From IMG/VR virus record IMGVR_UViG_3300028423_001161, positions 1 to 64,000 of that record: 64,000 bases of DNA; one strand, 5' to 3'. Made by a program: the position numbers and the translations under genes. Below the pieces are notes generated by a model. That model saw only the letters and a program-made list of their open reading frames with translations, was not told the DNA's origin and searched no databases. This document shows, piece by piece, positions 3,035 through 39,251 of this stretch (positions are counted from its first letter, which is position 1; every line of letters begins with the position of its first letter). The DNA is from a virus.

Positions 3035-4324
3035 TCAACCTCCTCCGGGAGGTGGCGGTAAGTCTTCAGGCGGCTGGTTAGGGCTGTTTCCTGTGATGAG
3101 GTTACGTGCGGCCTGTCCAACCAGTGACGTAGCACCACCAATTGCTGTGCCGAGTGCAGCATCTCTGACATCCCCGCCTGCAATAGCAGTAGCAACTGCA
3201 CTTGCACCTGTGTCTAAGAGCACATCCACAAAAGGATTTGTATCTTCGTTGCCTGTCTGGGTGCTTATAGATGCAGATTGGCCATATGTGGCAGGCACTG
3301 ACTGTGTTTGAGGATCTTGTGGTGTGCCCGGTCCTGTGGCTACAATTTCGCCTGCTTGATTGATTTCAGTGTCCACTACATTTACTGTGCCTGCACCTTG
3401 ACCTTCAGGAGAGAAACTGTTGGGCTGTCCTGTGCGGCCGCGCTCTGCAGGGCTGTTTGTGGTGACACCTAACACCGGCAACTCTCTGGTTGCTAGGCTT
3501 ATGTCTGATATGTTGGTATCTGCTTGGAAAGCTGGCCCTTCGAGGTCGCCCACATTTTCAAATCGATCTAGGTCTTCGTTGCTGAGACCAAAGTTCACTG
3601 CATTGTGCACAGTAAACTTCTCATATTCAAAACTCATCTGAAAATCTCTGAAGTCACTGGCAGTGTAGTCTAGCTCGGCACTCTTGAAACTGGTCAACAC
3701 AGGATTGATGATGCTGTACTGCACACCTTTGTTACCGTGATATAACACATAGTCAATGCGCTCGAAAAAGTGTGCATTGGCATTTGGATTATAGCCTGCC
3801 CGGTTGCTGTTGAAACTGCTTTCGCCTGCTTTGCCAAATGCAGAATTCACAAAATCTGTGCCGCCAGCACTGCTATACCAGCCTGCAATGTCTCGATCAT
3901 TGGGAGACTGTTGCTCGTTGCGAGGATCCATATAGTGATAAGCAAAGTACTTCATTAGCACTGCTAGCCACTCGTTGCCTACAGTATCATACACAGTCAT
4001 ACTCACTGGCTGATATTCAACACCAGTGTTTACAATGCGTTTGCGGTTGTATGAGTTATAGGTTTCTGTTTGAAACTCAACGCCAGGGAGCTCGGCTGTT
4101 CTCACAAGGCTGCTGATTGTGGTGCGAAACTCTGTTTGACCTGCATCACCGTCTGCGAATAGGCCAGGCAACAGTTCACGGTTGAATATGAAGTTCACAT
4201 AACCCTGAAACTTCTGTCTGACAGGGTTGACATGAGGCCGGAACTTATATGCGTTTCTAAAATCACGCATATAAAATTTCCGACCACTGCCAATACCTAA
4301 TGCATCAAATATCCTGTCAGGCAT
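3035..4324 (-). CDS. tail tube-like protein (baseplate-tube junction, gp54/gp48-like)
   Basis: Tube-fold motifs AELPGVEF, YNRKR, YQPVSMTVYD, LDY and FEYE; directly downstream of the tube gene; low-complexity C-terminus. Confidence 0.65.
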   Translation of the reverse strand: MPDRIFDALGIGSGRKFYMRDFRNAYKFRPHVNPVRQKFQGYVNFIFNRELLPGLFADGDAGQTEFRTTISSLVRTAELPGVEFQTETYNSYNRKRIVNTGVEYQPVSMTVYDTVGNEWLAVLMKYFAYHYMDPRNEQQSPNDRDIAGWYSSAGGTDFVNSAFGKAGESSFNSNRAGYNPNANAHFFERIDYVLYHGNKGVQYSIINPVLTSFKSAELDYTASDFRDFQMSFEYEKFTVHNAVNFGLSNEDLDRFENVGDLEGPAFQADTNISDISLATRELPVLGVTTNSPAERGRTGQPNSFSPEGQGAGTVNVVDTEINQAGEIVATGPGTPQDPQTQSVPATYGQSASISTQTGNEDTNPFVDVLLDTGASAVATAIAGGDVRDAALGTAIGGATSLVGQAARNLITGNSPNQPPEDLPPPPGGG

Positions 4325-4353
4325 AAAATCATCCTACCGAGGTAGTGTTAATT

Positions 4354-5001
4354 TTACGCTCCGTCACTGCCAGACGGTACATCTTCATTGGGGAATAGCG
4401 TACCTGTGGTAACGCCCGGAACATCACCGGTGTAGTCTTCGCTGCCTGCGTAGTGCGTGGCATTGTCGAAGCGTACTTGCATGGCAATTGTCACAGGATC
4501 GTTTGCACTGTAATCACTGTCGCTGTAGTCAACGTTTGTAAACCAGCAACCTTCCAAGAACCAAACTTCTGTGGCGCCTGCGGCATTACCATCAAGAATT
4601 TCCACTTGCATGTCAAATTTGTAGTCGTTGCCTGCAGCAGGAGTAGTTTGCTGGAAATGGTTGAGCTGACGTTGAACCTGTGCACCAACAAGGTTTGATG
4701 TTCTGTTTGAGATGTCATCACGCACAGTAACAGTGACCTGTTCCCAACTGTGCTTGCCTTGAATGTAACTACGGCTGTTGTAGCTGTCCAAGATTACTTC
4801 TTCATATGTGATCTTGGGACGTGTAACACTCATTACATTTTGTGTGAGCACACGTGCTTCAGGTTCGCCAGCAAAGCCACCCAACATGCTTACACGGAAG
4901 CGATACTTGAGTTTGGGCATCAGAATGCCTGAGCCGGTTGCTCCGGTTACTGGTACACCAAACTTGCTTCTGGTTTCTGTTGAATTGATTTGTGCTGCCA
5001 T
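4354..5001 (-). CDS. gp19: tail tube protein
   Basis: PKLKYRFRV, GKHSWEQVTVTVRDD and LEGCW motifs; follows the sheath gene. Confidence 0.85.
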   Translation of the reverse strand: MAAQINSTETRSKFGVPVTGATGSGILMPKLKYRFRVSMLGGFAGEPEARVLTQNVMSVTRPKITYEEVILDSYNSRSYIQGKHSWEQVTVTVRDDISNRTSNLVGAQVQRQLNHFQQTTPAAGNDYKFDMQVEILDGNAAGATEVWFLEGCWFTNVDYSDSDYSANDPVTIAMQVRFDNATHYAGSEDYTGDVPGVTTGTLFPNEDVPSGSDGA

Positions 5002-5087
5002 TGTTGTTCTCCTACGAACTGGTTGTTATGCAAATATTTATCACTTTTTGCGCAAAAATGTTATCTACCCATATAACTTACTCAAAC

Positions 5088-5113
5088 AAAAAGAGGGCCG
5101 AAGCCCTCTTTTT
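5088..5113 (-). terminator. intrinsic terminator after the sheath gene
   Basis: AAGAGGGC-TTCG-GCCCTCTT followed by a T-run on the minus strand (cUUCGg loop). Confidence 0.9.
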
Positions 5114-5133
5114 GCAACAACATATCGATGATG

Positions 5134-7920
5134 TTAGTTGGTTTGACCCAGTGTATTTTGCACACGAATTGGAATATAGATGAATTCCACTGCTTTGACT
5201 GGCTGGATAGCAATGTCAATGTGCAGTTCGTTGCGATCAATACGCTCTGGTGTGTTGTTGCTGCTGTCACACACAACCACAAAGTCAAACAGACCACGCT
5301 GTGAAACTAGGTTGCCTAGGAAGCGATCAACCAACACCTTGGCGTTTTGACGTGTAACTTCGTCGTTGGGCTCAAACAAGAATGGTCTAACCAAATCGTC
5401 TAAACGTTCTCGAATAAACACCACAAGACGTGCCACATTCACACGATCCAATGCACTAGCAGATGCGTTCAGTGTCTTTTGACCAAACACTGCTAGTCCT
5501 CGGCCCGGGAACTGACCAATTGGGTTAATCTTGTTGATATACAAGCTGTCACGCTGTCCTTCACTGAGTGCAACTGATTGGAACTCTCCGCTCTGTGCAT
5601 CGATGTAGCCCACACTTGAAGCATTTGTTACCACACCGCGCTGGAAGCCAGCAGGAGCAAACCATGGGAATGCCACCTGGTCATTGAACGCCAGTGTGCG
5701 CAGTGCAATGTGCGAAGCTGGAACAACCACGTTGTTGCCGTCTAAGTTGCTGGCCAACCCATGAGGATAGTAGACTGCAGCATATGGTGAACTGCTTACT
5801 AGTCCGTCCTCACCGTTTTCAATGGCATTGCTGCCGTTGATTGCCCAGTTCTGCAAACTGCTGGCATCAGAGCTCAAACGCAACGGCGCATCAGCAACAA
5901 TAAACGCAGTTTCCTTGCGATCAGTGTTGAGTTCAATCATTTCGTCGAGCAGTTCTGGATAACCAGGCACTGAGATTAGGTTGAAACGATTTGCTTCGTT
6001 GCGTATTTCGCTGTTGCTGCTGATAGCTGATTGCAGTTCTCTTACAACTGCGCGTCGCTGTGCTTTGCGCAACATATAAGGCGAACCATCGGGCTTGTTG
6101 CCGCTGTAGTCTTCCCAGTAGTCTTCCCAGGCATTCCATTTTTTCACATTACCACCAGACGCCTGTTTGTTCCATGCAAGAATGTTATATGGATACAGTG
6201 CAGGATTGGGAGCATCATCTGAATTCAAGCCAGCAGTGGTGCTAACACGGAAATCACCAAACACCATGCCGTCACTGCTTTCTTGGTCAGTGATATCAAC
6301 CAATGCCCAAGCAGTGCCGCTCCATTTGTAAACCTGAGGATAGTTTTCTAGGTCGCTGCTGTCGATCCACAAGTCACCTGCAACCAGTGCATTGCCTTCA
6401 GAGTTCAGTGAAGGTGTGCTTGCTGCAATGTTGACATCTCCGGTATAGGTTACCCAACCGTTCTGTGGATTATTTTCTAGGATGTCAATGCGATCATTGC
6501 TGACTAGACTGTCATACCACAGTGTGCCATCAGCCAATGCGCCCGTGGGCTCACCTGTTGACTTGTATGTTTCTGTGACCGGCCAGTTGCTGTAATCAAC
6601 ATTGTCTAGGAATCCAATGCTAGCAGGAGTGAAACCTGCAACATTGCCTGCTTCTAGTCTGATATTTCGACCGCGATTTTCTCGAATACGCAACCGCCCA
6701 TCTTCCAGTTCAAAAGCAGTGACGTTGTCGGCTTCGGTTAGCTCTACGTTGGCAGCCGAAAGGCTGTCGTTGATTGCAGTGAGTACTTCGTCTGAATCCA
6801 AGAAGCCATCTCCGTTTTCGTCGTAGCCTGCAAATGTAACATCAATGACACCCGAGTTGCCGTTGACTACATCTCTGTCGTTGACAATAATACTGAATGC
6901 AACAGTACCGTTGCTGTGTCCTGACGCACTAACATTTGCAGGAGAATCTGACACAGCACTAACTGTGTTAAATCCAGCATACTTGCGAATTCTCAGTTCT
7001 GCAACTTCGTCATCAAAATCTTTCCAGATATCGGAGGTTGTAGCACCGCCCAGTGCATCAAAGTAATCATTCACTTGATATGAATATTCGTAGCCCACAC
7101 TTGGAGCCGAAATCCACTGACCAGATTGATAAACCTTTAAGCCGAGGTTATTGCCGTTGTTGGCTTCGTTCATCTGCCAAACATAATCACCCACAGTGAG
7201 TGCACCGCCTGTGCTGTTGAGCAACGGCAACTGTGTGCTGCGAGCAACCTGAAAATCGCCACGGAAACCGTTGGCATTGTCGCCTAGCTTGTACCACTCG
7301 CCGCTCTGTTTTTCCCAGATCACAATATTATCTGTGTTCTCTTCAACACCGTTAGGAAACACAACAGCAACTCGTCCGTCTTTGCCATAGGCGTTTTTGG
7401 GTGCCGAATCGACTAATACGTTTGATGGTCCCAGACCAACAATATCTGTGACCTGTGCCCATTTTGAGCCGTCCCAGCGTTTCAGTCCAGTGATAAATTC
7501 AGACACATCAACCCAATATGAGCCGTCGTCCACTGATGCGGTGGGCTGTGAAGCTCTAGCTTCCAGTTGATCAAGGTCAACATCTGCGCGCAACACATAT
7601 GCCCGGTTTGCAATACCCAAAAAACTATAGGCTGCAAACAGGCCGTACTCATTGAGCTCGTGTCCTGGAAGCGGTGTGCCGCCTGAGGTTTTGAATATGG
7701 GGTTGCCAAAGTTTGTCAGTAAGTCTCTCTGACTGGTGACCAGCTTTACGTTGCCAGCTTCGGATGCTGTGGTACTGGCTGCAATGCCTGTTCCGTCGGG
7801 GCTGGCTTTGTCTTGTGCGGTTGCAATAACAACCAAAGGCACGGTGCCAGCACCAGCAGCAGTGCTGAAGCTCTCATCAGTTACAGTGATACTTACACCT
7901 GGTGATACTAATTCTGCCAT
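5134..7920 (-). CDS. gp18: contractile tail sheath protein (928 aa, with insertions)
   Basis: LVSPGVSI N-terminus; PWFAPAGFQRG, FGQKT, LDRVNVARL, FLFEPND and PVKAVEFIYIP motifs. Confidence 0.95.
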   Translation of the reverse strand: MAELVSPGVSITVTDESFSTAAGAGTVPLVVIATAQDKASPDGTGIAASTTASEAGNVKLVTSQRDLLTNFGNPIFKTSGGTPLPGHELNEYGLFAAYSFLGIANRAYVLRADVDLDQLEARASQPTASVDDGSYWVDVSEFITGLKRWDGSKWAQVTDIVGLGPSNVLVDSAPKNAYGKDGRVAVVFPNGVEENTDNIVIWEKQSGEWYKLGDNANGFRGDFQVARSTQLPLLNSTGGALTVGDYVWQMNEANNGNNLGLKVYQSGQWISAPSVGYEYSYQVNDYFDALGGATTSDIWKDFDDEVAELRIRKYAGFNTVSAVSDSPANVSASGHSNGTVAFSIIVNDRDVVNGNSGVIDVTFAGYDENGDGFLDSDEVLTAINDSLSAANVELTEADNVTAFELEDGRLRIRENRGRNIRLEAGNVAGFTPASIGFLDNVDYSNWPVTETYKSTGEPTGALADGTLWYDSLVSNDRIDILENNPQNGWVTYTGDVNIAASTPSLNSEGNALVAGDLWIDSSDLENYPQVYKWSGTAWALVDITDQESSDGMVFGDFRVSTTAGLNSDDAPNPALYPYNILAWNKQASGGNVKKWNAWEDYWEDYSGNKPDGSPYMLRKAQRRAVVRELQSAISSNSEIRNEANRFNLISVPGYPELLDEMIELNTDRKETAFIVADAPLRLSSDASSLQNWAINGSNAIENGEDGLVSSSPYAAVYYPHGLASNLDGNNVVVPASHIALRTLAFNDQVAFPWFAPAGFQRGVVTNASSVGYIDAQSGEFQSVALSEGQRDSLYINKINPIGQFPGRGLAVFGQKTLNASASALDRVNVARLVVFIRERLDDLVRPFLFEPNDEVTRQNAKVLVDRFLGNLVSQRGLFDFVVVCDSSNNTPERIDRNELHIDIAIQPVKAVEFIYIPIRVQNTLGQTN

Positions 7921-31232: not shown

Positions 31233-34193
31233 CTAACTATCTCGAACAGTGTCTGTGAGTTCTCGAATCAATCTATTGGTTTTGTCTGAGCTCATGGCAA
31301 TGCTGGCAAGTATTTCCTGCTGTGTTTTGTCTGTGCCACCTGCAGTTTGATTGGCAGTTTGTGCGGTAGTTTCTGTGGCCTGTGCGTTTTCCAGCTGTGG
31401 TGCAGGTGCATTTGCTCCGCCGCCTACAAGGTTCACACCGTATTCCACGATGCTTTGACCAGCACGCACTAGACCTTGGCCAATGCGCTCTGCTATGCCT
31501 TCTTCGTCGGGTTCAACACTGCGATTGACTGCTTCGATGGCTCTGGCACTGGCAAACATTGCATCACTGTCAAGGTCAGCAAATTTCTGGTAGACTTCTG
31601 CTATTTTATCCATGCTGAGTGCTGTTGCAGTGATGCCTTCAGCATTCATTGAGCCTATTCTCTCAAACAGATTCAACTGTTGGCTCTGTTTGTCTAGGTC
31701 TGCACCGCTGTCACCAAATAGACCATCTCTGCCCACTGTGCCACTGAACTCAGATAGGCTGTTTGTGATCTCTCCTATGGCCTGAGAGATGCTGACTATG
31801 TTTTCAGTGGGTATTGCACTGAGTCTTTCCACAACATCTGCTTGAGCTTCCAGCTTGATGGCTTCTGACTCTGCGCCTGCTGTTTTGATCTTGCTTACTG
31901 CTTCTGCTATTCCCTCTGCCACTGAAGCAATGCTAGTGCCGATGCTTTCCACATAAGAGCCCACACCTTCAAACACAGTCTTGATTGCATTGCCAACATT
32001 GCTGATCACAGTGCCAATGCCTTCCAGTGTGCTCTTGAACGCTTCTCCGAATGCTTCGATGCCAGGTGCAGCCACTCTCACTGCTAGTGCTATGCCATTG
32101 ATGGCCACTGTGACAGCAGCAAGTCCTGCCAGAGCTGCAGGATTAGCAAATGCTCTTAGGCCTACTGCTAGGCGTTTGAGACCAGCACCTATTCCGCGTA
32201 TCATGCCTCCGCCAGCTCTGCTTCCTGCTGTGGCCACTGTGCTTGCAGTGCTTGACGCAGCGTTGGCGCCTGCACCTGCGGCCACTTTAGCAAGCACTAT
32301 TGGTGCTGCCGCTGCCATCAGTGCTTTAACACCCACTACGCTTAGAACTCCTAGTGCAATAGCACTCCAGTTGAGGCCATCTATCTGTGTTCTAGTCTCA
32401 CCTGTTTCAGAATCCTTTACCTGTTTGGTGTCTACAAACATGCCAAACACTTTCATCAGTCCGCTGCCAATAGCAGACAGTATTTGGAATGCACTTTTCA
32501 AACCGTCAATGAAGCTTTTCACGCTTTCCTTGAACTGGTCAACATCAAAATCTTCAATGAACTGAACTACTCTATCAGTGAGTGTGCTGAGTTGTTCATC
32601 GGCAAAAACTCTTATTTTGTCTGCCAAGCTGGCAGTGGCATCGCCTGTGTCAAACAGTCTGGTGAACAAGCCCTGTGGACCTGTGAGTGCTGTGCCCACT
32701 GCAGACACACTGTTCATCAAGGACTGTAACACACTGTTTACACCTTCGCTGTCTTCTGTGAAAGCTTCAGCAAAGGCTTCCATAGGCCCGCTGAATGTGC
32801 CTGCTAGTCCTGTGAACAGTGATCCTAAACTGCCCTGCACCTGATTAAGTGCTTGATCAAAAGCCGCTGCGCCTTTGGCAAGACCTTCGACGTCAAAATC
32901 TTGACCGAGATTTTCTTCCAGATTGCGTGCGGCTGTTCTCAGTTGTGCCAGGCTCAAGGCCAGTGCTTCGCCTTGTGCACCCTGCATGGCCAATGTGGCC
33001 TGGAGTTCTTGAAAATCTGCACCGCTGAGACTGCTGGCTGCTTCCATGAACTCTTCATCGAGATTGTTGAGCATTCTCTGTGCGGCCTGAGGATCAGTTT
33101 TGCTGAGCTCGTTGGCAGCACGCACAGTTTCATTGATAGCTGTGCCTGCTTTGCTGTCCAGCACTGCCACAGCACTGAACAACTCTGCAGTGGCATCTGA
33201 TCCAAATGCCACCACTTCGGTGGCAGCGGCGCCAATGGTGTTGATGAGAGTTTGGTCAAGACCTGCAGCAGATAGATCACCAAGTGCTCTCTCTATGCCT
33301 CGTGTGAAATCTCTGGCTGCTTCAGGATCCAGTTGAGCTGCAATGCTCTGTATTCTCAGTGCGGCTTGCGCATTGCTGGTGAGTGTTTCTTCGCTGGCTC
33401 CTCTGATGTCGTCAATGCTTTTGCCTAAAAGAGTTGTGGCTTCAAGCTGTTGATCAAAGAGGTCAGCACTGCGCTTGGCGGCACGGTTTGCATCCAATTC
33501 GTTGAGTATGCCCAATCTCTGTCTGCGATCAAGATCTTCGGCCAGTATATCGCTGGCTTCCGACATGGTCATACCAAATTCTGAACCAAAGTTGCTGGCT
33601 GTGGCAAATGCACTCTGCAGTTCTCCAAAGCTCTGCTTGCCCACTGTCTGCACCACATTGCTGTAGCCTGCCAATAGGTTTGCTGCTTGCTTGGCATTGA
33701 GTCCTAGTTGACGCACATTGGAGAGTGCATCAATGGCTGAACCGCCTGCATCTGTGAAGCCAACACCAACCTGCGTGAGTTCGCCTAGTGTGCTACCCAC
33801 ATTGAGCACAGAACTCTTGAGAATGCCAAATGCAGTGATCACCCCAGGCACTGCTTTCTTGCCTAGACTCATTAGACCTTGAGACGCTATCACCGTGGTT
33901 TCGCCTAGGTCTCTGGCAAAGCGGCCTCCGGCTGTGTCTTTCTCCACAGTGTCAATGAGTTCTTTGAAGTTTTCTGCTTGTTTTTTGCGAAACTCTTGTG
34001 TTTGTGCTTGCTCGTCTTTGTCTTGTTTGGTTTGTTCTTTGGCGTCATCAAGTTGTTTTTCATAGATGGCCATGGCTTCTTTGTTGCTGCCCAGCTGAGC
34101 CTCCATGATTTTTAGCATTTCCTGGCTGGTGCTCTCCAATGCAAAATTGGGCACATCAACAAAGTTGCCGTCAGGTAGTTGTATTTCAGCCAT
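31233..34193 (-). CDS. probable tape measure protein
   Basis: 986-aa Ala/Gly-rich helical protein with two hydrophobic segments and periodic aromatic/Ile repeats; divergent from gp26. Confidence 0.7.
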   Translation of the reverse strand: MAEIQLPDGNFVDVPNFALESTSQEMLKIMEAQLGSNKEAMAIYEKQLDDAKEQTKQDKDEQAQTQEFRKKQAENFKELIDTVEKDTAGGRFARDLGETTVIASQGLMSLGKKAVPGVITAFGILKSSVLNVGSTLGELTQVGVGFTDAGGSAIDALSNVRQLGLNAKQAANLLAGYSNVVQTVGKQSFGELQSAFATASNFGSEFGMTMSEASDILAEDLDRRQRLGILNELDANRAAKRSADLFDQQLEATTLLGKSIDDIRGASEETLTSNAQAALRIQSIAAQLDPEAARDFTRGIERALGDLSAAGLDQTLINTIGAAATEVVAFGSDATAELFSAVAVLDSKAGTAINETVRAANELSKTDPQAAQRMLNNLDEEFMEAASSLSGADFQELQATLAMQGAQGEALALSLAQLRTAARNLEENLGQDFDVEGLAKGAAAFDQALNQVQGSLGSLFTGLAGTFSGPMEAFAEAFTEDSEGVNSVLQSLMNSVSAVGTALTGPQGLFTRLFDTGDATASLADKIRVFADEQLSTLTDRVVQFIEDFDVDQFKESVKSFIDGLKSAFQILSAIGSGLMKVFGMFVDTKQVKDSETGETRTQIDGLNWSAIALGVLSVVGVKALMAAAAPIVLAKVAAGAGANAASSTASTVATAGSRAGGGMIRGIGAGLKRLAVGLRAFANPAALAGLAAVTVAINGIALAVRVAAPGIEAFGEAFKSTLEGIGTVISNVGNAIKTVFEGVGSYVESIGTSIASVAEGIAEAVSKIKTAGAESEAIKLEAQADVVERLSAIPTENIVSISQAIGEITNSLSEFSGTVGRDGLFGDSGADLDKQSQQLNLFERIGSMNAEGITATALSMDKIAEVYQKFADLDSDAMFASARAIEAVNRSVEPDEEGIAERIGQGLVRAGQSIVEYGVNLVGGGANAPAPQLENAQATETTAQTANQTAGGTDKTQQEILASIAMSSDKTNRLIRELTDTVRDS

Positions 34194-34223: not shown

Positions 34224-34261
34224 GATAAATATTGTTCACACATACACAAACAATATTTATC
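34224..34261. promoter_or_regulatory. pair of face-to-face late promoters forming a perfect 13-bp inverted repeat
   Basis: GATAAATATTGTT (34224-34236) and AACAATATTTATC (34249-34261). Confidence 0.7.
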
Positions 34262-34287
34262 TGTGCAATTAACAGGAGTTTTTACAG

Positions 34288-35139
34288 ATGACAAACACAC
34301 ACAATCCACTCAGTGGATACTTTCGTTCTCCCAAGCTGTACACTCGTATTCCCACCATGGGTAGATTCTATGACCCAGACACACTGGAAATGCCAGAAAC
34401 CGGCGAGTTGCCAGTGTTTGCCATGACAGCCAAGGACGAGATGATCATGAAGAACCCAGATGCACTGCTCAACGGCGAAGCTGTGGCACAGGTTATCCAG
34501 AGCTGTGTGCCAGCAGTGAAAAAGCCCAGGTCACTGATCAGCAACGATGTGGACACACTGTTGATTGCAATACAGGGTGCTACACAAGGCGACGACATTG
34601 AAGTTTCTGGCAAGTGCCCAACATGTGGCGCTGAAGATCGTGGCACAGTGAGTGCAGAAGGTATCCTAGAAACCATGACCACGCTAGAAGACTCATATAC
34701 CTTTGACTTGCCCAATGGGTTGACCATTGAAATTCGTCCGTTCACCTATGAAAGCACAGTGAAAGCAGGTGTAGCCAATTTCAAAACCACACGCAGTCTG
34801 CAAAGTCTCACCAACATAGAAGATGAAATGGAACAGATGCGTGCATTCAATGAAAACTTTCAGCAGATTGCAGCCTTGAATTTTGATCTTGTGGTAGACA
34901 GTGTGGGCAGTATTTCAGGCACAGACAGTGAAGGCGAAAGATTCATTGTCACAGATCGCAACAGCATCCGCGAGTTCATGGAGAACACTGAGAGCTCTGT
35001 GGGCAAGCAGGTAGAAGAACGCATCAAAGAAGTCAATGCTGTGGGTGTGAACAAAACTGTGCAGTTGAACTGCGAAGAGCATGGTGAGTTTGAGCATGAG
35101 GTAGCGTTTGATCCTGTAAATTTTTCCACAGCTTCCTAG
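34288..35139 (+). CDS. gp26: baseplate hub assembly protein / tail chaperone
   Basis: NPL..YFR.PK, MTAKDE, LLNGEA, D.D.LLIAI, CPTC and terminal FDPVNF. Confidence 0.8.
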   Translation: MTNTHNPLSGYFRSPKLYTRIPTMGRFYDPDTLEMPETGELPVFAMTAKDEMIMKNPDALLNGEAVAQVIQSCVPAVKKPRSLISNDVDTLLIAIQGATQGDDIEVSGKCPTCGAEDRGTVSAEGILETMTTLEDSYTFDLPNGLTIEIRPFTYESTVKAGVANFKTTRSLQSLTNIEDEMEQMRAFNENFQQIAALNFDLVVDSVGSISGTDSEGERFIVTDRNSIREFMENTESSVGKQVEERIKEVNAVGVNKTVQLNCEEHGEFEHEVAFDPVNFSTAS

Positions 35140-35360
35140 CTCACGCAGACACAGAAGATATCATAAACCTCCTAAATCGCCTGAGAAAGGAAGCAAGCAA
35201 CCTAGAAAAAAGTCTTGTGGAAATTGCTGTTTACAGCAATGGCAGTATCTCATGGCAAGATGCCTATATGATGAGCACACAAGAACGAGAACTTGCAGTC
35301 AAGGCCATCAACAACTATCTCAAAATCAAAGCAGGCAAACCTGTCACTGAAGAGCTATAG
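35124..35360 (+). CDS. gp51-like baseplate hub chaperone ORF, probably reached by -1 frameshift from gp26
   Basis: 78-codon -1 frame (FHSFLAHAD...ISWQDAYMMSTQERELAVKAIN...) with no ATG/GTG/TTG in its first 31 codons; opens just before the A AAT TTT heptamer. Confidence 0.65.
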   Translation, partial: FHSFLAHADTEDIINLLNRLRKEASNLEKSLVEIAVYSNGSISWQDAYMMSTQERELAVKAINNYLKIKAGKPVTEEL

Positions 35361-35519
35361 TCATAGATAACACGCACAGCTCTCATTTGTACACAACATC
35401 AACACAAACTACACAGGCCTAACGGCCTTTTCAAACTGCGTTCATTCATTTCGCTTTCGCTTCATTCACTCACTGGTTTGAAAGAGTCTTCCTACTCAAC
35501 AGAGTTAATCATACAATAT

Positions 35520-35885
35520 AAGAGTATTCATGTAGATAGTGAGGTCATACGAAGCCTGTTCCTGGCAACGTATGACTCCGAAACTTCATGTGAGTAGCTT
35601 CGGCCACAACGGAAGGCAGGTGTTTTCAGCACACTCCTCTGGGCTCTGACCTTACCCAACCTGCGTCGATTTTTAATGACACCTCGCTTCAGTGTGCCAA
35701 TGGGAGTTTTGTGCATGAGATTTCAACTGTTAAGACTGTGCAAACGTTTCTATCAGTGGACAGACGTTTTAGCATCCTCTCGGGTAGTGCACAGAATCAG
35801 CTCATAGCAGAAGCCTTGGCCTACCACCTCATTTCAGAGTGGATTCAGCAACGGTATTAGATCCGGCCCGTCAACCTTGTGTGCT
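35520..35885 (-). ncRNA. candidate large structured non-coding RNA (family not identified)
   Basis: Non-coding gap with many nested stems (GTCATACG/CGTATGAC, GCAGGT/ACCTGC, CTGTGCA/TGCACAG, AAACGT/ACGTTT) and GAGA/GAAA-containing loops on the minus strand. Confidence 0.5.
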
Positions 35886-35989
35886 ATGTGTGTGTTGCCT
35901 ATGAAAAATGTCAGTTGTTGTTTAAGTGCCTAGAACTAAGCCATGTGAGATAGTATGATGTGCCCTGTGATATGCCATGCGTGTGATAG

Positions 35990-36415
35990 TTATTTGCCTT
36001 TTAAGCCTTCTCTGAGTATTTTTGAACCACCAACACGTACATTGATGATTCCATTGTAGTAATCGTCCCGGAGCAGTACCTCTCTGTCAAACTGCTCTTT
36101 GGCTTCTAGATAGCTGGCAATGCCTCTGCTAGCGCAAAAATGCAGTATCTCTCTGGTGAACTGTTCTTGGCCCAGCTCTGCAACATCCTCATTGAGCTGA
36201 TCCGAACTGCCCCAGTACTCTCGCCAGTCGCTCTCTTTGGTGCCACGTCTCTTGCGTTTTTTGCCTTTGAGCGGCGGTTTAGTGGTTTTAAACTGTGCCA
36301 GCTTTTTGCCCACATACTTCTTGCCGTTGACCTTGTTTGTGATCAAGTACACAAATGCTTCACAGCCTTCAGGAAGTTCATCTATGGGTTTCCCCTTGTA
36401 TAGCCACTGACTCAT
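35990..36415 (-). CDS. minimal GIY-YIG (SegE-like) nuclease-domain protein
   Basis: FVYLITN...KKYVGKK, YWGSS, FTREIL, YLEAKEQ and YYN; no C-terminal DNA-binding extension. Confidence 0.8.
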   Translation of the reverse strand: MSQWLYKGKPIDELPEGCEAFVYLITNKVNGKKYVGKKLAQFKTTKPPLKGKKRKRRGTKESDWREYWGSSDQLNEDVAELGQEQFTREILHFCASRGIASYLEAKEQFDREVLLRDDYYNGIINVRVGGSKILREGLKGK

Positions 36416-36466
36416 CAAGGCTATTTACGAGATTCACTGATATATCCGGATGTTTCACGAAAGCCA

Positions 36467-38233
36467 TCAGTCTATGTACTCTGTGTCTGTGTTGTATTCT
36501 GTGAAGCCGCCTGTTTTGACCACAGTGAGCACGTTGTTTACTCTGCCCACCAGCTCATCTTTGTGGCTAATCAGCATGATGTTTTTGCCCTGGTCTCTGT
36601 GCATTTTTTTCAACACACTCAACGAATTTTCCACACCCACACTGTCCATGCCTGAGTCAATGAGTTCATCCACACACATTAGGTTCATGGGTCGGTTCAA
36701 GCTCTCATAGATGTCACGAAATGCCCAGCTTATGCTGAGGATCAAACGGTTGCGTTCACCTCTGCTGAGGTTGTCAAAGTCTAGGTCTCTGCCAAATTCT
36801 GTGATTTCCACGCCCAAATCACTGCCAAATTCCACTTCGTGCGGCAAGCCAATGCGCTCTAGATAGTATGCTAGACGCTGGTTGAGATAGGCAATGTTCT
36901 GATCAATGATTTTTCTCCGAATAAACGAATCTTTGCTGGTCAACAGTTTGTACAAAAACTCTTGGTGTTCTCTGAGCTCAGTGAGCTCGTTGATTTTGTC
37001 AAAGCTCACTTCTTGCAGTGCAGTTTCTCTGAGACTGTCAATTTGTTCTGTGTATGGATTTTTTTCGTGTTGTTTCTGTGCGTACTGTTCTGCCAATGTT
37101 TCTAGATTGTGTTTGTGTTCATATGCAGATTCCACACTGTCATAGAATGTGTCTTTGGCATCGGGTACCTCACCCAGTTGTTCCAGTGCTTGATGTATCT
37201 CTGTGTGGCGAGTTTGCAGTTCTTTGTTGTATTTGGTTTCTTCAGATAGTTTGTCCTGCACACTTTTGATATATTGTTCGTGTGTGTGCAAGTGGGCTGT
37301 GCCTTGACCGCAGGCCGGACATACACCTTCGTTGGCCTGTTGCACATTGTGCTCACACTCTTCTAGAGTTTTGTTGCTGCGTTCAATGGTGGTGTTCAAT
37401 TGCTTGAGCTCAGACTCCAGTGTGGATTGTGCATCTTTGAGCTCAGCAGCCTCTTGATTGTGTTTGTGTGCTGAAATCTCAGCATCCACATCCAGTTGAT
37501 CCAGTGTTTTCAGTGTGTTTGCCAGCTCTGCTAGCTTTTCATCGTGCGACCTCTGCCATGCTCGACTGCGACTCTCAATTTCAGTGATGTTCTCTTCGAT
37601 TCTCTTGTTGCTGGCCTCAATGGCATTGATTTCAATTTCTTCTTGCTTGATAAAATCTTTGGTGTTCTTGAGCTGTTCTTTGAGCACTTCTGCTTTGGCA
37701 CTGAGATCAGTGATGCCCAGCAGCTGTTCAATCATGTCACGCTGATCAGCAGCTTTCATGCTCAGGAAAGGCTCGGTGTAGGTGTTCAATGCAATGATGT
37801 GCTTGAACATGTTGTGGGGAAAACCCACAATCTTTTCGATGTGTTTCTGTGTTTCTCTGCTATCGCCTTGGCTTTCGTTGTCGTCTTTTTCAACACCGTT
37901 CACATAGAGTTTGAGCACATTGGGCTTTCTGCCTCGCTCAATGCGATAGTCCACATCGTCAATTTCAAAGTCAACACTCACCATCATGCCCTTGCCGTTG
38001 GTCTTGTTGATGAGATTATCTCGGCGAATATTGGTGAGTGCTTCTCCATAGAGACCATAGCTGAGTGCATTGATAATGGTGGTTTTGCCTGTGCCGTTTC
38101 TGCTGCCTTCGCCGCCCAAGTCAAGATTGTGCCCCAGCACCAATGTGAGCTGACTGTTTTCAAAGTTTACTGCTTGAGTTTGTGCGCCAATGCTCATGAA
38201 GTTGCGTGCACTGACATTCTTGATTTTCAGCAC
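36467..38233 (-). CDS. gp46: recombination endonuclease ATPase subunit (Rad50/SbcC-like)
   Basis: Walker A NGTGKT, CPAC zinc hook, LSRGE signature, VDE Walker B and ISH; GTG start. Confidence 0.95.
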   Translation of the reverse strand: MLKIKNVSARNFMSIGAQTQAVNFENSQLTLVLGHNLDLGGEGSRNGTGKTTIINALSYGLYGEALTNIRRDNLINKTNGKGMMVSVDFEIDDVDYRIERGRKPNVLKLYVNGVEKDDNESQGDSRETQKHIEKIVGFPHNMFKHIIALNTYTEPFLSMKAADQRDMIEQLLGITDLSAKAEVLKEQLKNTKDFIKQEEIEINAIEASNKRIEENITEIESRSRAWQRSHDEKLAELANTLKTLDQLDVDAEISAHKHNQEAAELKDAQSTLESELKQLNTTIERSNKTLEECEHNVQQANEGVCPACGQGTAHLHTHEQYIKSVQDKLSEETKYNKELQTRHTEIHQALEQLGEVPDAKDTFYDSVESAYEHKHNLETLAEQYAQKQHEKNPYTEQIDSLRETALQEVSFDKINELTELREHQEFLYKLLTSKDSFIRRKIIDQNIAYLNQRLAYYLERIGLPHEVEFGSDLGVEITEFGRDLDFDNLSRGERNRLILSISWAFRDIYESLNRPMNLMCVDELIDSGMDSVGVENSLSVLKKMHRDQGKNIMLISHKDELVGRVNNVLTVVKTGGFTEYNTDTEYID

Positions 38234-38234
38234 T

Positions 38235-39251
38235 CTAGGTCTCCAGTTTTTGGTAGATCTCAATCAGCCTGTGTGGTTGCACTGTGTTGCTTTCCACAGT
38301 CTCCAGCTGACTGATCACGATGTGATCCACACTCTCAAAATTGATTTCAGCACCAGATTGATCCTGCTCTTGTTCTTTCACAGGTATCAGCTGAAGCTCT
38401 CTGACTCCGTATTGTTCAGAAAACTTTTCTCTGATAAAGTTGGCTTCTTCATAGGAAATGCCAATGTTTAGTTTAACACGTGCATAGGTATACCGGTCAA
38501 GAAGATTTTGATGATTGTCAATGAGATCACTGAGGTCAAACACCCGATACTTGGGACATTCTGGCCAGTTCACATACTGAGGTTCGCCGTCCCAGTCTAA
38601 GAACATTGCACCTCTGTGGTCATCGTCTACATCAGCATAGTTGTGCGGAAAAGCATTGCCCATGTAGTGAATGTTGTTTTTGTATTGACGTTTGTGAAAA
38701 TGTCCCGAGAACACATACTCTGGTCCATTGAGGTGATCTGCATTGATGCCTCCGTGATCAGGCATTTCTACCAGTGCGTTCATCTTGAAGTGTGGCAACT
38801 CAAAGTGTCCAAACACATATCTTGACTTGGTCTTGACCACCTTGCGCCACTCGTCGCCCACAAGCCACGGCACCAGTGCTACACCGTCCTGTTCGATCAC
38901 TTCGTCCACAAACACAAAGTTTTCCAGGTCTCTGGCAAACTCCACGCTGTTGAGATCTCGCTTGTCTTTGTAGTAGAGATCATGGTTGCCCACAATGAAG
39001 TACACAGTTTCAAATGCTTCATTGAGCTTTTTGAGATTGCGTATGCCTGTGTTCATGGTTGCCACATTTACACTGGCTCTGTGATGATTCCAGTCTCCCA
39101 AGAATATGCAGGTTTCACAGCCACGTGCCTTGCTCTCAGCAATGAACCAGTCCATGAAACGATCGCAATCATCTAGATGCACTTTGCTGTTTTGCTTGAG
39201 ACCCAGATGAATGTCAGTGAAACAGGCAGCTTTTTTGAAAAGTTGACTCAT
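38235..39251 (-). CDS. gp47: recombination endonuclease nuclease subunit (Mre11/SbcD-like)
   Basis: DIH, LGD, GNHD, GHFE and SGHFH metallophosphoesterase motifs. Confidence 0.95.
   Translation of the reverse strand: MSQLFKKAACFTDIHLGLKQNSKVHLDDCDRFMDWFIAESKARGCETCIFLGDWNHHRASVNVATMNTGIRNLKKLNEAFETVYFIVGNHDLYYKDKRDLNSVEFARDLENFVFVDEVIEQDGVALVPWLVGDEWRKVVKTKSRYVFGHFELPHFKMNALVEMPDHGGINADHLNGPEYVFSGHFHKRQYKNNIHYMGNAFPHNYADVDDDHRGAMFLDWDGEPQYVNWPECPKYRVFDLSDLIDNHQNLLDRYTYARVKLNIGISYEEANFIREKFSEQYGVRELQLIPVKEQEQDQSGAEINFESVDHIVISQLETVESNTVQPHRLIEIYQKLET

Follow-up and report, generated by a model that had tools for sequence, protein, structure and literature searches.

A single gene of an uncultured giant phage of the T4-like type very probably does alone what bacteriophage T4 does with two, genes 26 and 51. 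The gene lies at 34288-35139 on the plus strand of a 64,000-nucleotide stretch of viral DNA (positions 1 to 64,000 of the IMG/VR record IMGVR_UViG_3300028423_001161, hereafter the window) and encodes a protein of the gp26/gp51 family. With a probability that we put at a little under nine in ten, comparative sequence analysis indicates that this one gene yields both a 283- and a 357-residue protein by way of a −1 slip of the ribosome at the sequence AAATTTT. In the mechanism that we propose, most ribosomes would stop at the TAG at 35137-35139 and release the short form of 283 residues. A minority would slip back by one base when the AAU and UUU codons of A_AAU_UUU occupy the P and A sites, with re-pairing on AAA_UUU. 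The slipped ribosomes would then read 78 more codons to produce a long form of 357 residues, which would have the same first 279 residues followed by a four-helix C-terminal domain. The short form would correspond to T4 gp26 and the long form to T4 gp51, and the ratio between the two would be set by the efficiency of the slip. By analogy with the G and GT proteins of phage lambda, both forms probably act with a tape-measure-like neighbor in the initiation of the hub and the tail tube. Our search of the literature found no report of a −1 frameshift in the gp26/gp51 family.

The assignment of the gene to this family comes from its 0-frame product, the short form. This product, taken from the list of open reading frames (ORFs) of the window, matches the PF12322 profile "T4_baseplate" over residues 46-271 with 49.9 bits against a cut-off of 24.5, and it matches phrog_150, "baseplate hub", at 7e-17. 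The 80.7-kb record from which the window is taken has no other PF12322 match. A Shine-Dalgarno sequence, AGGAG (34274-34278, plus strand), can be read 9 nucleotides before the ATG at 34288. The 3′ end of the ORF reads GAT CCT GTA AAT TTT TCC ACA GCT TCC TAG, and A_AAT_TTT at 35118-35124 is therefore a slippery heptamer of the X_XXY_YYZ type in the correct phase, with AAT and TTT as 0-frame codons. The 0-frame stop, TAG at 35137-35139, comes four codons past the heptamer. On the same strand, the −1 frame is closed by a TGA at 35109-35111, two codons upstream of the slip site, and is open from 35112 to a TAG at 35358-35360. The extension in this frame (35124-35360) amounts to 78 codons plus that stop and yields the 357-residue long form. 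The first GTG and the first ATG of the −1 frame (35217 and 35268) fall 33 and 50 codons after the heptamer, and a usable start before codon 33 of the extension ORF is absent. A preliminary description of the window, made from its letters, had proposed a programmed −1 frameshift that would give products of 283 and about 357 residues. Its reading of an in-phase A_AAT_TTT at the end of gp26, of a −1 frame closed by the TGA at 35109 and then running 78 codons to the TAG at 35358-35360, and of a GTG and an ATG lying far inside is borne out by the sequence, and the predicted sizes are 283 and 357 residues.

The predicted −1 product continues from ...DPVNFF into HSFLAH... and reads ...DPVNFFHSFLAHADTEDIINLL... 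in the window; the predicted trans-frame junction peptide is ...VNFFHSFLAHADTEDIINLLNR, and the long form would have a mass of roughly 41 kDa. Within the shared part of the two forms, C110, C113, and C262 of two zinc-ribbon-like Cys-pair motifs are conserved, and the second pair in the window reads C..H. The column of F279, which belongs to a C-terminal FF motif, hardly varies among jumbo phages and T4 gp26. This FF is changed to FS in the 0 frame of the window protein and is retained in the −1 product. The underlying change from TTC to TCC replaces F with S in the 0 frame and is silent in the −1 frame.

An alignment of relatives had been suggested as a check on the proposed frameshift, and the comparison gives it strong support: heptamer, −1 phase, and missing start codon are all kept among the relatives. 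Counts out of 102 given here refer to the non-redundant loci that have the extension in the −1 frame. Every one of them carries an in-phase X_XXY_YYZ heptamer, which is T_TTT_TTC at 94 loci, A_AAT_TTT at 7, and T_TTT_TTT at 1. Searches by tblastn with the −1 peptide found matches directly after the gp26 homolog and in the −1 frame in phages Phosso, RsoM2USA, and SCTP-2, and inspection revealed the same layout in Atu_ph07, PA5oct, CBB, GAP32, and XbC2, for a total of eight isolate phage genomes. The arrangement also occurs in 39 IMG/VR relatives, in a separate lineage (L050), and at 68 metagenome loci. The distance from the heptamer to the 0-frame stop is 1-6 codons across the 102 loci, and at 83 of them the −1 frame opens merely 0-3 codons before the heptamer. 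A DNA-level search of the phage collection found nothing, and locus scans queried with the RsoM2USA protein and with the protein P0130 returned no loci.

Codon choice at the slip site is extreme relative to the rest of these genes. At all 95 loci of the T_TTT_TTC type (the 94 T_TTT_TTC loci and the single T_TTT_TTT locus), the codon preceding TTT TTC ends in T, as AAT, GAT, AGT, CAT, or, in RsoM2USA, GTT, whereas the T-ending synonym (NAT or AGT) is used only 56-71% of the time elsewhere in the same genes. The second Phe codon is TTC at 94 of these 95 loci versus 23% of Phe codons elsewhere. For comparison, T4 gp26, which lacks an extension and directly precedes gene 25, encodes its terminal FF as TTC TTT, which is not slippery. 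Entropy was calculated for 28 non-redundant sequences of the marine clade. The last 33 nucleotides of the gene are almost invariant among them, with a mean entropy of 0.18, and the preceding 35 codons have entropies of 1.27, 1.07, and 1.63 by codon position. The A of the GTA codon before the heptamer, a four-fold degenerate position, is invariant in the same set. Past the 0-frame stop, the variation tracks the −1 frame, with entropies of 0.88, 0.67, and 1.47 by codon position. Because the heptamer is present at 102 of 102 loci and is accompanied by this skewed usage of the preceding codon and of TTC, we judge from the comparison that its in-phase occurrence in the window is beyond chance.

Relatives that encode the core and the extension in one frame indicate where the extension belongs. 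A profile of the extension matched 455 clusters at E<1e-3 in a search of 1.84 billion proteins, and most of these matches are small ORFs whose called starts are internal or spurious. Among the best 150 matches, 12 are proteins of 325-351 residues that have the core and the extension in the same frame, with the extension at the C-terminus; a word-based search for longer fused forms had found none, and it was the exhaustive profile search that found these 12. They are 27-36% identical to one another and all 12 match PF12322, and they therefore form a real clade rather than a set of assembly errors. The DNA at their junction reads, for example, CAA TTT CGT and has no T run. Since such natural in-frame fusions exist, the extension is best read as a C-terminal domain that belongs on the PF12322 core. 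The extension alone has no significant Pfam match, and its sole PHROG match is to phrog_18291 (E 0.013), a function-unknown family with a small ORF of Rak2-like phages. AlphaFold2 predicts four helices for the isolated extension with a predicted local distance difference test (pLDDT) score of 84.

The number of family genes per locus was also counted, with a flank of about 5 kb covered at the loci of the in-frame clade. At five of five in-frame loci, a short paralog that ends in ...GSNFF.. lies immediately upstream in tandem; 67 of the 68 −1-type metagenome loci hold a single family gene. The tandem pairs (L060-L064) include, for instance, a short gene at 4012-4983 and a long gene at 4983-5996 in L064, and they are found on jumbo-phage contigs of up to 360 kb. 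Per genome, PF12322 has one match in each of 7 complete jumbo phages and two matches in T4.

The two T4 proteins, gp26 (208 residues) and gp51 (249 residues), have been listed as hub assembly chaperones, and gp51 has been described as an essential protein that is missing from the particle and whose function is unknown (Leiman et al. 2010, PMC3004832; Table 2 for the chaperone assignment). Both belong to the same Pfam and PHROG families as the window protein. They match PF12322 over residues 1-206 (gp26) and 1-201 (gp51), and they match phrog_150 as far as profile position 235 for gp26 and 280 for gp51. Relatives of gp51 carry a second domain, PF28602. The end of gp26, ...EFFELL, lies just past the FF motif, as does the end of the predicted short form, and gp51 and the predicted long form both continue into a helical C-terminal domain. 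The preliminary description had called the extension gp51-like, and this claim gains moderate support from profile comparisons in which gp51 appears as a paralog of gp26 within PF12322 that carries one more domain at its C-terminus. When hhalign was used to align the extension and the gp51 tail, the P values were 0.014-0.028 with narrow profiles, 5e-4 with the natural fusions added, and 8e-4 with 185 sequences, in the last case over 71 collinear columns and with a reversed control at 0.053. The 71 columns span the second Cys pair, F-[RK]xLL, and P[ED]EI and reach to the final S..ER helix. These alignments argue with moderate strength for homology between the extension and the C-terminal domain of gp51. 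A plain hidden Markov model built from Tevenvirinae gp51 was too distant to score the jumbo-phage proteins.

In full-length hhalign comparisons of the long forms with gp51, the C-terminal half, including the extension, matched gp51 residues 14-163 off-register (P 1.5e-4), a pattern that suggests an internal duplication of a strand, zinc ribbon, and helix module within the PF12322 family. This off-register match confounds global alignment, and only C-terminal sub-alignments were therefore used. T4 differs from the window in having two divergently transcribed genes and no slippery site, in place of a single gene with a putative frameshift. The gp51 tail also lacks about 12 residues of the long helix, and the similarity is moderate. 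T4 gene 26 has an annotated internal-start product, 26′ (95 residues; 3803-4090, minus strand, in L049), so T4 makes two nested gene 26 products by another route.

Structural comparison was carried out with a model of a natural long form, P0124, which was obtained with a pLDDT of 96 and a predicted TM-score (pTM) of 0.91 and has the same four helices at residues 256-331. Matches of this long-form model in BFVD are gp26/gp51-type proteins labeled "baseplate hub (assembly)", with E values down to 3e-15. Foldseek gave no match at E<=0.001 for the extension against BFVD or for the long form against the PDB, and sequence searches of the PDB found nothing. When the long-form model was compared by VIA-align with 48,161 PDB representatives, HK97 gp13 (2OB9), YqbN (3KLU), and Rbstp2171 (3FGX) ranked 1, 2, and 6. 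The three structures cover model residues 1-85, 1-86, and 1-94, respectively, with 79-85 aligned residues each. HK97 gp13, Bacillus subtilis YqbN, and Geobacillus stearothermophilus Rbstp2171 are all named tail assembly chaperones (PMC9603447). Because solved tail assembly chaperones are thus the top structural matches of the N-terminal domain, a likeness in fold is tentatively backed by the model. None of the Phage_TAC Pfam families matches, even at E values up to 10.

A conserved −1 frameshift of tail assembly chaperone genes was reportedly described by Xu, Hendrix, and Duda in 2004, with lambda gpG/gpGT and P2 gpE/gpE+E′ among the cases. As in lambda G/GT and P2 E/E′, the putative slip in the window would take place a few codons short of the stop, at an X_XXY_YYZ heptamer, and would give a short and a C-terminally extended product. 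The slip site is likewise kept while the sequences diverge, and the gene stands beside a tape-measure-like gene. The P2 slip site is similarly T-rich. Unlike lambda gpG, the window protein belongs to PF12322, and its short form, roughly double gpG in size, has zinc-ribbon-like Cys pairs. In lambda and P2, the tape measure gene follows immediately on the same strand, whereas the window gene is divergent from its tape-measure-like neighbor. The analogy with G/GT drawn in the preliminary description is thus supported in its logic and tentatively in fold, and it does not extend to the position of the gene. Escherichia coli dnaX, which encodes tau and gamma, offers a second comparison. There, a −1 frameshift assisted by a strong upstream Shine-Dalgarno sequence and a downstream hairpin yields the shorter product. 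In dnaX, a −1 frameshift near a stop sets a fixed ratio of the long and short forms of one assembly protein, as it would in the window; unlike in dnaX, the frameshift here would give the longer product, and a conserved stimulator was not found across the family. The gp26 homolog of CBB is annotated as a "structural protein".

A broader proposal can be made, and we regard it as evenly poised between right and wrong: that T4-like phages have their true tail assembly chaperone in the gp26/gp51 family, with a fold and descent common to lambda gpG, HK97 gp13, and P2 gpE, that the −1 frameshift is the ancestral way of making its two forms, and that duplication later replaced it with separate genes 26 and 51 in T4 and with tandem short/long pairs in another clade. 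If one ancestral gene slips to make both forms, T4 gp26 and gp51 would be a short/long pair like G/GT, the required gp26:gp51 ratio would become a testable quantity, and the conserved tail-chaperone frameshift would extend to the largest group of contractile-tail phages. Were the family a true chaperone with an ancestral frameshift, T4-like phages would cease to look like an exception to the conserved tail-chaperone frameshift, and a concrete role would be found for gp51, long described as essential with unknown function.

Several observations weigh against the frameshift reading set out at the start. The A_AAT_TTT variant of the window has only five T. RNAalifold found no consensus structure downstream of the site across the family. 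The preliminary description had pointed to GAGGT upstream of the site and to an AGCT/AGCT mini-stem after it; both are present in the window (GAGGT at 35098-35102), but neither is conserved in relatives, and they are not supported as signals. Because the downstream structure and GAGGT are not conserved in the family, the efficiency of the slip may be low. Duplication and slipping are not strictly exclusive, as seen at one locus (L065) that has a tandem paralog together with the T_TTT_TTC frameshift arrangement in the downstream copy (4084-4971 and 4971-5801, with the −1 ORF running to 6016); this locus may represent a step between having one gene and having two. In the comparison with T4, the HH-suite probability for the extension against the gp51 C-terminus is only 24-32%. 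The match to the chaperone fold has middling Z scores (5.2-6.3) and was obtained with a 23%-identical relative rather than with the window protein. Finally, an ATG overlaps the 0-frame stop (as ATGA) in Phosso and Atu_ph07, and an ATG occurs 12-14 codons into the extension in CBB, GAP32, and SCTP-2. Given these overlaps and early internal ATGs, some lineages could additionally start the small ORF independently.

Those ATG codons lead to the alternative that survives best, although we consider it improbable: the downstream ORF would be a separate small gene, translated by termination-reinitiation (coupling) or from a non-canonical start and never joined to gp26. A −1-frame start that precedes the slip site within the open stretch, found at only 5 of the 102 loci, would also serve such a gene, and public records do annotate small ORFs there. 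At 91 of the 102 loci, however, the conserved domain is already more than 5 codons under way when the first ATG, GTG, or TTG of the −1 frame appears (codon 33 in the window), and the PA5oct extension contains no Met at all. The conserved motif FF[RHQ]xxL(L)..PEEI starts exactly at the slip site, and the natural in-frame fusions place the domain on the core. Reinitiation, moreover, would need neither an invariant heptamer nor its phase nor the codon choice seen around it.

The annotated small ORFs are part of a wider pattern, in which all the public records examined either lack the extension or have it in truncated form, and none joins it to the hub gene. The region has no annotated gene in PA5oct (L005) and RsoM2USA (L002). 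Short "hypothetical" ORFs are annotated at the extension in Atu_ph07 (L004, gp687), CBB (L006, gp249), GAP32 (L007, GAP32_242), SCTP-2 (L003, gene 87), XbC2, and Phosso, and the truncated ones start at an internal ATG. One JGI record labels a 65-residue fragment of the extension (P0005) as "N-acetylglucosamine-6-phosphate deacetylase", which is clearly wrong. Annotation pipelines should therefore join both frames.

Programmed −1 frameshifting by the ribosome also has to be weighed against transcriptional slippage, to which we give slightly less credence than to a separate small gene. RNA polymerase would add one U on the T run in some mRNAs, and the inserted U would give an identical long protein; the nine-T run at the RsoM2USA site would suit such a process. 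Transcriptional slippage sites are known to use longer runs, though, and the run here is only T6 at 94 loci and T5 at 7 of 102. The run is followed by C at 101 of 102 loci despite a −1 residue that varies among R, H, and Q. FF elsewhere in the genes of these relatives is mostly encoded as TTT TTT, so longer runs are possible yet avoided at the site. Polymerase slippage also has no need of a fixed phase, yet the run keeps the same phase throughout. It is scarcely credible that the arrangement is an indel introduced into the homopolymer by assembly or sequencing, with an in-frame fusion as the true gene: homopolymers are error-prone and the viral record behind the window was derived from a metagenome, but the same −1 arrangement recurs in over 100 independent assemblies, including the eight isolate phage genomes, and the genuine in-frame relatives have a different junction without the T run.

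One further candidate for a stimulatory element was found in the window. The sequence GCUUCCU (35131-35137), which begins 6 nucleotides after the heptamer, can pair with AGGAAGC (35188-35194) in a possible stem-loop (35131-35194, plus strand). Its minimum free energy is −19.3 kcal/mol (z −3.63), and none of 200 shuffled sequences folds as well. At least 6 of the 7 pairs of the outer stem are kept in 15 of the 28 marine-clade sequences, with one C-G/T-A double change and several C.A mismatches, and the stem is lost in a more distant subclade. A scan of 35000-36100 against Rfam gave no match. The stem-loop is a possible stimulator and is offered as a lead only.

On the other side of the gp26/gp51-type gene, the minus strand encodes a 986-residue protein (31233-34193) that is likely the tape measure protein, as the preliminary description had supposed of this divergent neighbor. 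Tape-measure clusters (PF10145, PF20155) account for 28 of its 30 language-model neighbors. It has a weak match to phrog_1204, "tail protein", and PA5oct, CBB, and GAP32 have homologs that bear the annotation of virion structural protein; BLASTP against T4 gp29 gave no significant similarity. The same divergent layout is found in PA5oct, CBB, GAP32, Phosso, RsoM2USA, and SCTP-2. The 94-nucleotide spacer between the two genes contains two facing GATAAATA elements, at 34224-34231 on the plus strand and at 34254-34261 on the minus strand. The T4 late promoter is TATAAATA. Because the GATAAATA elements resemble it, two late transcripts may start here from crossed promoters.

Downstream of the extension stop, about 630 nucleotides (35361-35989) separate it from the next gene and contain no real-looking ORF over 62 residues. 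In this interval, a small hairpin (AGGCC-TAAC-GGCCT, 35415-35428) with TTTT after it is a candidate weak terminator. The next gene (35990-36418, minus strand) encodes a SegE-type free-standing GIY-YIG homing endonuclease (PF19835, 2.9e-35) and separates the hub-chaperone gene from the gp46/gp47-like recombination nuclease genes (36467-38263 and 38235-39251).

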